In this document: positions 6,001 to 9,000 of the stretch, piece after piece
Layout: the number at the start of each line of letters is the position of its first letter
Numbering within the stretch: position 1 is the first letter of the stretch
DNA from: a virus
Lineage: Duplodnaviria > Heunggongvirae > Uroviricota > Caudoviricetes
DNA: 44,997 nt
IMG/VR virus record: IMGVR_UViG_2917408641_000002
Location: 1 to 44,997 of that record
Strand: one strand, 5' to 3'
Made by a program: the position numbers

Positions 6001-9000
6001 ACTGGCCTGTGATGCACTGCAAATGGCGTTGTGGCGGAGAAGACGCCCGGAAAGCGTCATTGTTCATACGGACCGTGGTGGTCAATACTGTTCAGGGGAT
6101 TATCAGGCGCTGCTGAAGCGACACAACCTGCGTGGCAGTATGAGTGCGAAAGGCAACTGTTATGACAATGCCTGTGTGGAAAGCTTCTTTCATTCGCTGA
6201 AGGTGGAATGTATCCACGGGGAACGCTTTAGCAGCCGGGAAATAATGCGGGCAACGGTGTTTAATTATATCGAGTGTGATTACAATCGCTGGCGTCGTCA
6301 CAGTGCCTGTGGCGGTCTCAGCCCGGAACAATTTGAAAACCATAATCTCGCTTAGGGCCGTGTCCACATTACGTGGGTAGGATCACTTCGCGAGATAAGG
6401 AGCAAACTTGTTGAGATGCGTCATGGTGTTGCTGCTCCTCACTTTTTGGTTGCTCCGGAGGAGTAACCTCGCCAGTTAACAGCCACATCGGATCACAGCC
6501 CAGAATATTAGCCAGTGGGATAAGCATACTGATAGTTGGTTCATAGTCTCCGCTCTCCCACTGGATGATGATATCTTCATCGAGATTGAGCAGCCTGGCC
6601 ACTTCGGCGGTTGTTAAGCCACAGGCTTCGCGTTGGGTGCGGAGGCGGTTGTTGATTACAGTATTTTTGCTCTGTAAAAGCATTGCTGACGATAGCTTTC
6701 TGGATATGCTATTTGTCATATCCCATGCCAGTCCTGCGCATGACTCGATATCGCCAGAGAGCGTAGCATCTGGCGTTGCTTTGGCTATTAGTGTAATGAG
6801 GCTGCCGAGGTTTTTCAGTTCTTCAAGACAGTCAAGAGTTGTAGCTTTATTGATCATGAGATGATACCTCAGTTACGAACTTTGTTTTATGGTAACTAAG
6901 GTATCAAGGTGTGGCAAGTGATTTTTGATACTTTGGTTTCTTTTTGTGTTTTGAGTCTGGTCAGAAAATATCCCACCTGGCATCAACCACAACACCTACT
7001 ATTTCGCAATCATTGTCCATTTCTATGATTGGATATTGTGGATTAAGGGGCTTTAGAAACGCCTTTCCCATTTCAGAAATATATTTTTTGAATGTTGCTT
7101 CATTGGTGGATTTTTTTCTGGCGATGACGTAACATCCTGAAAAAACTTCTTTATCTGGGTTGACAAGGATCGACATTCCTTCAGGAAATGTTATTCCTAC
7201 GGGCGAAGTCATTGAGTCTCCGTGCACTTCCAGCCAGAACCCCCTCTCACCAGCGTATTTTACAGAATGCCTCCAGTTATCCTGATCATACATGTTGTAG
7301 TCATCACCAGCAGTTGCGAATAATCCTGCCTGAACCCAGTTAATTACAGGGTAAGAGTGTGCTGTGTCTCTCTGTGGGCAGCTCTTAACATTATTTTCCC
7401 AATGCTTATCTTTTGCATCTCCGCTCTGAAGCCACTGCGGTGAACACTGCAGTGCAGCTGCGACTTTAAAAAGGGTGTCACCGTTGAAACTTTTTGTAAG
7501 GCCTTGCTCGGCTTTACTGATTGCAACTCTGGTGACCCCTGCTTTTTTAGCCAACGCATCTTGCGTTAACCCAGCTTTTTGTCGTGCGTTGATGAGGCGT
7601 TCACCTAAAGATTTCATTTTTCTTCTCCTTTCATGGCTGCTGATACTAAAGTAACAGAATCTCTTGATACTTTGGATTCTCGTGTTTAACATTCTTGGAT
7701 AACAGAGTATCTGGTGTGAGACTAAAGAATGACCCTTTATGAAATATTAAAAACTCAATTTAAAACCAATGCCGCTATTGGCCGCAGGTTCCCAAAGAAA
7801 GGAAAGCCTCGTGGCAGTCAAGGTGTTGGAAAGTGGAAAACGAGAGGTGTTCCAGAGGACGTAGCTATTCTCTGCCATCTGGATCCAAGTATCCCGTATA
7901 TCCATCCTGATTTAGCGCACACAGAAGAGGGGCAAGGTAAGCAATCGGAGGTGTGATATGTCACAGTGCTTAGCGATGCTTCAGAAACTTAATCAGCGTA
8001 TTAAGGCTGGGAAGAATTTCTGCGGGAGTTTTGATAACCGGAACAATCCGCCTGTCTTCATAGAGCTCACTAGCTTTCAGTGCGTTAAAAAAGTTATCTA
8101 CGGCTTGTTGGTAACTTCGTGCTTGTCTGCTGCTCAGGTGAGGGCGCAGTCTTCTGAAATCGTCTCTGGATATATGTGGCATATCCCGTTTTCCGTCTCG
8201 GCAACCCTCGCGGAAGGCGTCAAGGATCAGGAACAATTCATCAGCGACGGCATTGAACTCTTTCCGCTTATCTCGATTTTTGGCAAGCCAGTGTCCGAGC
8301 CAGGCGCCAAGTCCAAAAGCACTAACCGTCCAGATGAAGGTAACAAGGCGCGGGTTGGTATTGAACAGAAGAACAAACTCACTCCAGATGATTCCCATAA
8401 TTTCTGGCGACTCCTTTTTGTTCAGGTAGCGGCATTTCTTGTTGCATTTCCTGTTGGTGCTTATTTCAGCATGCGGGCAAATCTTCGCAATGACTGGCGT
8501 AAGCATATCCAGAAAGGAAGACGCCTGAAAGTACCCGTACTGGCTATGTTCTCCATCACAGGCATCAGCGATCGCATTAAACCTCGATCTTGGCAGATAT
8601 GGGAACGGAAGCATTGGTTTCAGGATATGCGGATATGCCATGGGATCGAGGCTGCTTATAGGGATGCATGGCTCTGGAAAAAGCGCGTAACTGAGAAGTG
8701 CTGAACCGTGATCCCAATAATTTATCCGTAAGGAGGTATCAGTGAACACCGCAATTTTTAACGATAAAGCATCCATGACCAGCGTTGAGATCGCAGAGTT
8801 GGTGGGCAGCCAACACAAAGATGTTAAGCGCAGCATTGAAAGGCTCATGGATAAGGGGATTATTCGAAGTGCGCCAATGGCGAATTTCGAAATAATCAAC
8901 AACTTAGGGTTAAAACGAAATGTAGGTGCTTACATCTTCGAAGGCGAACAAGGTAAGCGCGACAGCATCATTGTCGTCGCTCAGCTTTGCCCCGAATTCA

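Follow-up and report, generated by a model that had tools for sequence, protein, structure and literature searches.

What do the short, partly palindromic sequences that recur on both sides of a phage repressor gene do, and which protein recognises them? We addressed this question in IMG/VR record IMGVR_UViG_2917408641_000002, a Caudoviricetes sequence of 44,997 bp whose whole length is called the window below. A preliminary description of the window had reported five copies of an operator-like motif around a CI-like repressor gene and had read them as the left and right operators (OL and OR) of an immunity region. Our analysis identified six sites, which very probably serve as operators in the lambda-type lysis/lysogeny switch of a phiP27-like Escherichia coli prophage. 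The proposed OL/OR immunity layout is supported by a full-length CI, by the overlap of the sites with predicted promoters, by a conservation footprint, and by the co-variation of the sites with the repressor helix across genera.

Operator-like sites on both flanks of the repressor gene

The pattern TGATACNNNNGWWWC matched the 44,997-bp window exactly five times, at 6862–6876 (+), 6892–6906 (−), 6926–6940 (+), 7641–7655 (+) and 7665–7679 (+). These are the same five copies, at the same coordinates, that had been described before. All five are confined to 820 bp, and a search of the whole window returned no match to the pattern outside the immunity region. For TGATAC-N4-GWWWC, the five observed matches compare with 0.07 expected by chance and with a maximum of one in 100 shuffles. 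As had been reported, three matches fall in the stretch from the stop of the CI-like gene (6961–7617, − strand) to the first leftward ATG (6857), and two in that from the CI start to the open reading frame (ORF) in the cro position (7729). The earlier count of three plus two was correct for the left trio but not for the right pair, where a sixth site makes the arrangement three plus three. This site, GATAACAGAGTATC at 7698–7711 beside the cro-position ORF, differs by one mismatch from the relaxed palindrome GATAC-N4-GTATC, and it had been missed because the earlier pattern was too strict.

Both flanks of the repressor gene therefore carry multiple part-palindromic sites of one family, three at 6862–6941 and three at 7641–7712. 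The left set occupies the 103-bp gap between the CI gene and the next leftward ORF, and the right set occupies the 111-bp control region between the divergent CI gene (−) and the rightward ORF of 75 amino acids (+). The sites are imperfect palindromes of 14–16 bp with the form (T)GATAC-N4-GTATC(A), and in every one of the six, one half is a perfect GATAC and the other half is degenerate. By position, they are as follows.

6862–6877, + strand: OL1-position operator, TGATACCTCAGTTACG; pattern match
6891–6906, − strand: OL2-position operator, TGATACCTTAGTTACC on the minus strand; pattern match
6926–6941, + strand: OL3-position operator, TGATACTTTGGTTTCT; pattern match
7641–7656, + strand: OR3-position operator, TGATACTAAAGTAACA; pattern match
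7665–7680, + strand: OR2-position operator, TGATACTTTGGATTCT; pattern match
7697–7712, − strand: OR1-position operator (the sixth site), AGATACTCTGTTATCC on the minus strand; one mismatch to GATAC-N4-GTATC

The sites resemble one another closely: OL2 forms a 93% inverted repeat with OL1, and OR2 is 94% identical to OL3 over 17 nt. By direct reading, OR3 is the best palindrome in the window (11/12 against the ideal). When a weight matrix was derived from the six sites, they filled the top seven of about 90,000 window positions, with 7641–7656 scoring on both strands and OL3 scoring highest. In leave-one-out tests, the six ranked between 2nd and 32nd, and the sixth site was the lowest (32 of 89,964); with the full matrix it scored 15.3, whereas no position beyond the six exceeded 13.8. 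The next matrix matches, at 29586 (13.8) and 17196 (13.2), overlap predicted ORFs and score below all six, and they were taken as chance matches. The position of the sixth site is conserved: an equivalent is found at the matching place in loci of Photorhabdus, Kosakonia, Yersinia and Citrobacter, while phage Stx2_12E129 carries the site as the perfect palindrome GATACTTAAGTATC.

The repressor gene and the predicted promoters

The gene between the two sets of sites corresponds to phiP27 L11.

6961–7617, − strand: CI repressor gene (phiP27 L11), 218 amino acids, with Pfam HTH_3 and Peptidase_S24 domains

The helix-turn-helix (HTH) domain HTH_3 covers residues 10–63 (1e-14) and carries the N-terminal recognition helix TRVAISKAEQG, and Peptidase_S24 covers residues 90–211 (1e-22). 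Comparison with full-length lambda CI (E = 5e-34) spans the QAG, G(D/N)SM and FKK motifs, and VQAGLF (Ala96-Gly97), GDSM (Ser135) and FKKY (Lys177/178) of the window's protein align with VQAGMF, GNSM and FKKL of lambda CI. By these sequence features, the gene is an intact and complete CI-type S24 repressor gene with a predicted self-cleaving domain. Its product is 99.5% identical to phiP27 L11. The closest characterised repressor is P22 C2 (45% identity over 97% of the length), whose N-terminal structures were also the best HTH matches, and the HTH domain also has detectable sequence similarity to the Cro and repressor proteins of phage 434 (E = 1e-8 and 6e-4, respectively).

A consensus scan predicted one leftward (PL) and one rightward (PR) early promoter.

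6889–6917, − strand: predicted PL promoter, TTGCCA-N17-TACCAT; 9/12 consensus positions
7664–7692, + strand: predicted PR promoter, TTGATA-N17-TAACAT; 9/12 consensus positions

These two were the only good outward sigma-70 consensus matches in both intergenic regions, and both overlap sites. On the left, OL2 covers the predicted PL spacer and extends over 3 nt at the start of the −10 hexamer. OL1 follows the predicted PL start, spanning about +6 to +20 of PL ahead of the first leftward gene, and overlaps the Shine-Dalgarno DNA of that gene. OL3 begins 9 bp upstream of the predicted PL −35 and is the site closest to the CI stop codon. On the right, OR3, the site closest to the CI start, starts 9 bp before the predicted PR −35, OR2 overlaps the −35 hexamer, and OR1 covers the predicted PR start point. 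OL1 and OR1 thus both stand just 3′ of predicted −10 hexamers (consensus matches of 9/12; region background of 1.7).

The same hexamers and site placement are repeated in diverged relatives. Reading of the sequences gave TTGCCC-N17-TACCAT in locus L104 and TTGACA-N17-TACATT in Photorhabdus locus L122 as PL-like architectures, and TTGATA-N17-TAGATT in Photorhabdus where the window has its predicted PR. Other candidates were dropped. By eye, a rightward promoter that would use the TTGATA in OL3 was discarded for want of a −10 at the proper distance, and for the maintenance promoter (PRM), the best −10 candidates, TAGTAT (the reverse complement of 7643–7648, within OR3) and the more conserved TACTTT, both lacked an acceptable −35. 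A terminator scan of 6750–7800 gave no hit. In the Yersinia, Kosakonia and Citrobacter loci (L126–L128), a GC-rich hairpin followed by a T-run, resembling a terminator, was seen after the CI stop.

Conservation of the sites among relatives

We aligned the whole region from 68 loci whose CI is at least 85% identical to that of the window, representing 47 distinct sequences. Among these 47, variation was seen in 25 of 90 intergenic columns within sites and in 91 of 124 outside them (Fisher p = 3e-11). With 31% of its columns variable, the CI coding sequence also varied more than the sites. Variable columns numbered 1 of 15 in OL1, 2 of 15 in OL2, and 3 of 15 in each of OR3 and OR2. In locus L104, whose CI is 86% identical, all six sites (OL1 among them) are retained despite largely rewritten spacers, and OL3 has become the perfect palindrome GATACTAAAGTATC.

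The preliminary description had named frequent occurrence of the motif elsewhere as an observation that would count against its reading. Across the 68 loci (379 kb), every one of the 312 strict matches is found no more than 130 bp from CI, and neither the rest of the window nor the non-flanking DNA of these loci contains any.

Operator class and the repressor recognition helix

Of the full set of 130 loci, which spans several genera, the helix RVAISKAE and the strict motif occurred together in 75 and were both missing from 55, and no locus had only one of the two. We also compared sites at equivalent positions in loci drawn from the genomic contexts of L12 homologues and from distant CI homologues; the CI identities below are relative to the window.

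Photorhabdus, Kosakonia, Yersinia and Citrobacter loci: CI 63–74%; helix (T/S)RVAISKAE(Q/L)G; sites GATAC-N4-GTWWC
Providencia, Salmonella and one metagenomic locus: CI 45–50%; helix SRVTISKIELG; sites (C)GAAAC-N4-GTTTC
Serratia sp. Ag1: CI 52%; helix SRMAISKIEMG; sites TAAAC-N4-GTTTA
P22-like loci: CI about 46%; helix SNAAISQWERS; P22 operators

Repressors with the same helix thus go with the same sites, and the finding that had been named earlier as a refutation, homologous repressors binding unrelated sequences, was not obtained. The comparison also reveals one scaffold, consisting of L10 where present, CI, a Cro-fold protein and three plus three sites with a fixed 14-bp geometry, that carries at least three operator classes. 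GATAC, GAAAC and TAAAC differ by one or two bases per half-site, and they pair with a few substitutions in the CI helix (VAISKAEQ, VTISKIEL and MAISKIEM). In the Yersinia (L126), Kosakonia (L127) and Citrobacter (L128) loci, only two OL sites are recognisable, against three in E. coli and Photorhabdus; operator number therefore varies within the GATAC class.

The motif had further been proposed to define the immunity specificity of this particular prophage. Its role in the immunity region is supported, but the specificity is not the prophage's own: the GATAC class is common to phiP27, to several Stx1 and Stx2 phages, and to prophages of Photorhabdus, Yersinia, Kosakonia and Citrobacter.

Alternative explanations for the sites

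Two further genes of the module encode proteins that could bind the sites.

7729–7956, + strand: cro-position gene (phiP27 L12), 75 amino acids; Cro-fold HTH protein, first gene of PR
6369–6857, − strand: first gene of the leftward operon (phiP27 L10 homologue), 162 amino acids; HTH_3 (3e-10), C-terminal

The explanation that survives best after binding by CI, improbable as we consider it, is that the sites are recognised mainly by one of these two proteins in place of CI. The L12 product is a small HTH protein with a Cro fold and so belongs to the Cro family, and the divergent CI/cro-type synteny is kept in 10 loci of 8 genera. Lambdoid Cro proteins bind the operators of CI, and a shared use of the sites by L12 is likely. 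The half-site class (GATAC, GAAAC or TAAAC), however, tracks the recognition helix of CI, whereas the putative recognition helix of L12 is identical in the GATAC-type window and in a GAAAC-type locus (L129). L10 heads the PL operon and contains an HTH domain, but the GATAC motif also occurs in Photorhabdus, Yersinia and Citrobacter loci (L122, L126 and L128) from which L10 is missing. The motif therefore follows CI and not L10, and L10 was rejected as the binding protein. Use of the sites by L12 alongside CI is expected and is compatible with their being CI operators.

It is still less likely that the sites bind a host factor or serve in replication or recombination, as iterons or as an architectural array of the IHF/Fis type. 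AT-rich repeats near early promoters can be architectural sites, but here the motif varies in step with the phage repressor helix within one host family, which would be unexpected for a host-factor site. The palindromic form of 14–16 bp suits a dimeric HTH protein, and in relatives the O-like and helicase genes for replication are found several kb further right.

Least credible of all is that the repeats are chance matches or non-functional remnants of duplication or recombination at module boundaries with no regulatory role: such a short motif (about 19 bits) is calculated to match by chance about 15–20 times per 5-Mb genome and two-copy short repeats are frequent in AT-rich intergenic DNA, but neither accounts for five strict matches in 820 bp where 0.07 would be expected per 45 kb, for sites better conserved than the surrounding intergenic DNA and the CI coding sequence, or for a position and palindromic form kept across genera while the spacers diverge.

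A proposed switch and the points that weigh against it

With the sites read as CI operators, the switch would work as follows. OL1–OL3 (6862–6941) would act over PL, and OR3–OR1 (7641–7712) over PR and the region of the repressor start. CI dimers would bind each site through the helix-turn-helix TRVAISKAEQG, so that occupancy of OR2 and OR1 would block PR and occupancy of OL2 and OL1 would block PL, keeping the prophage silent and giving the lysogen immunity to phages that share its operators. The C-terminal domain, which resembles that of lambda CI, probably provides pairwise cooperativity. On SOS induction, RecA-stimulated self-cleavage, probably at Ala96-Gly97, would lift repression, after which the Cro-fold protein would act at the right operator. 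OR3, beside the CI start, probably allows CI, the Cro-fold L12 protein, or both to turn down the maintenance promoter.

Several points weigh against this reading. We infer CI binding from the conservation footprint and from the co-variation of helix and half-site, and the 75/55 association, like the footprint, draws on relatives that are not phylogenetically independent. Likewise inferred are the identity of the promoters, cooperativity, the order in which the sites are occupied, and autoregulation. The two promoters match the consensus at only 9/12 positions, and the scan of the region gave 3 matches against 1.7 expected in shuffles. A search by eye across 7618–7712 for PRM, the leftward promoter, found no convincing candidate. 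The sites are spaced by 29 and 35 bp in OL and by 24 and 32 bp in OR, compared with 23–24 bp in lambda, and cooperative pairing is therefore an assumption. OR3 as the best palindrome does not fit the lambda order of affinities. Judged by its sequence alone, the sixth site is weak (leave-one-out rank 32). Finally, across operator classes L12 is more conserved (70–85%) than CI (45–67%), which fits the lambda template poorly.

The constancy of L12 deserves a closer look. Its identity of 70–85% was seen across loci L004, L104 and L121–L129, whose CI proteins are 45–67% identical and whose half-sites differ, and its putative recognition helix, SQGVGKWK.RG, does not follow operator class. Cro proteins usually diverge fast and co-vary with immunity, and the constancy of L12 is therefore unusual. 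We offer as a tentative idea, more doubtful than likely, that the family is a natural series of specificity switches, with immunity determined by CI alone and a near-invariant Cro active across the classes. CI alone would set the specificity if Cro read only the A-x-A-C part that the half-sites share. If so, a phage's Cro could also work at the operators of its heteroimmune relatives, and such cross-talk or anti-immunity is unexpected under the lambda paradigm.

Neighbouring genes

The L10 homologue at the head of the leftward operon matches PHROG 4739 as well as PHROG 4836, a 'CII-like regulator'. It occupies the place of lambda N and is an HTH protein rather than an N-type antiterminator; as the first PL gene we found this 162-amino-acid HTH protein instead of a lambda-type N. 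P27 has been reported to be without N, CII and CIII (PMC3430580). The presence of N, CII and CIII is a trait of lambda proper and is separate from the operator arrangement.

Directly 3′ of the L10 homologue, the leftward early operon contains an insertion sequence (IS) of the IS3 family at 5141–6385, within a segment at 4979–6471. It comprises orfA (5204–5503) and orfB (5630–6355) and has the terminal inverted repeats TGATCTTACCCAC... and ...GTGGGTAGGATCA; the final codons and the stop of L10 fall in the IS end. This 1.49-kb segment stands where the equivalent prophage of strain GB089 has 26 bp. The IS could be polar on genes driven by PL, such as those for recombination or excision functions.

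On the other side, an ORF at 7970–8902 (− strand), equivalent to phiP27 L13 (about 7970–8641 of the window), lies between the cro-position gene and a Rha/Ant-like gene at 8742–9449. Pfam and PHROG searches with this ORF gave no match. It is missing from the Stx1 and Stx2 relatives, and strain GB089 has a forward-strand gene in its place. The ORF looks like a moron at a mosaic junction.

Distribution and significance of the immunity class

The window as a whole (1–44997) holds a complete phiP27-like prophage, from integrase to tail fibres, that is 94–97% identical to AJ298298 over 56–75% of its length. A tblastn search of the window for stx2, with a Stx2 A-subunit query, gave no match, and the prophage appears to be a stx-negative relative of the Stx2e phage. 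The immunity region (6850–7740) was found in 195 of 5,426 complete E. coli genomes (about 3.6%), always chromosomal and in single copy. No genome carried it twice, where a rough estimate under independent carriage gives about seven; single-copy carriage is consistent with an immunity group and mildly suggestive of immunity exclusion, though by itself it is weak evidence.

The CI class occurs in some Stx1a and Stx2a phages, and several Stx1a- and Stx2a-converting phages are 83–84% identical to the region. Phages of the Stx1_14040 type have a CI that is 93% identical, with unchanged sites. The literature that we searched contained no experimental study of this class. For this stretch, the GenBank feature table of phiP27 lists coding sequences only, with no operator, promoter or binding features. 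A full-text literature search did not find the operator sequence, though an earlier mention in the 2002 phiP27 genome paper is possible, and the literature matches to the operator strings were unrelated primers. The operator sequence of the phiP27 class does not appear to have been described before.

The lambda-textbook principle of the switch and the sequenced phiP27 immunity region are already known, and a switch that follows the textbook is unlikely to surprise a specialist. What is provided here is a concrete operator sequence with a predicted promoter map for the phiP27 immunity class. For the Stx1a and Stx2a phages of the class, the affinity between repressor and operator governs spontaneous induction and hence toxin release. 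The motif can also be used as an inexpensive marker to sort prophages into immunity groups, and the GATAC/GAAAC/TAAAC series with its matched helix changes is a ready system for studying the evolution of repressor specificity.

Comparison with known systems

The immunity region of phiP27 (AJ298298/NC_003356), with L10, L11 ('putative lambda repressor') and L12, is the same element. Over 6472–7960, the nucleotide identity is 98.3%, and phiP27 carries all six sites, differing by a single flanking substitution. phiP27 is a Stx2e phage, and the window differs from it by the IS3-family element in the PL operon.

Lambda is matched in the divergent cI and cro genes, in the three part-palindromic operators on each side of cI, which in the window overlap the predicted PL and PR, in the N-terminal HTH and homologous, predicted self-cleaving C-terminal domain of CI, and in the Cro-fold partner. 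Lambda operators are 17 bp long and of the TATCACCGC type, whereas those of the window are of the GATAC type, 14–16 bp, shorter and unrelated in sequence. The window further differs from lambda in the spacing of its sites (24–35 bp against 23–24 bp), in its first PL gene (an HTH protein in place of N), in a cI with its own Shine-Dalgarno where lambda cI is leaderless, and in the distance between OL and OR, which is only about 0.77 kb.

Loci of the P22 immC type share the gene layout and carry P22-type operators on both sides. In the window, the helix is TRVAISKAEQG, against SNVAISQWERS in the P22 type, and the operators are GATAC-N4-GTATC, against the 18-bp ATTTAAG...CTTAAAT of P22; P22-type operators were present in loci L107–L113 and were not found in the window. 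Since both helix and operators are unlike those of P22, the window belongs to a different immunity class. The operators of phage 434 are 14 bp long (ACAA-N6-TTGT), and the window's sites share with them a 14-bp core whose outer bases are conserved and whose centre varies, but differ in half-site sequence and in a central spacer of 4 bp against 6 bp. Among other Stx phages, 933W has three OR and two OL sites and H-19B has four OR sites (reviewed in PMC8065619). Site number thus varies in these phages as it does in the GATAC class, while their repressor and operator families differ from those of the window.

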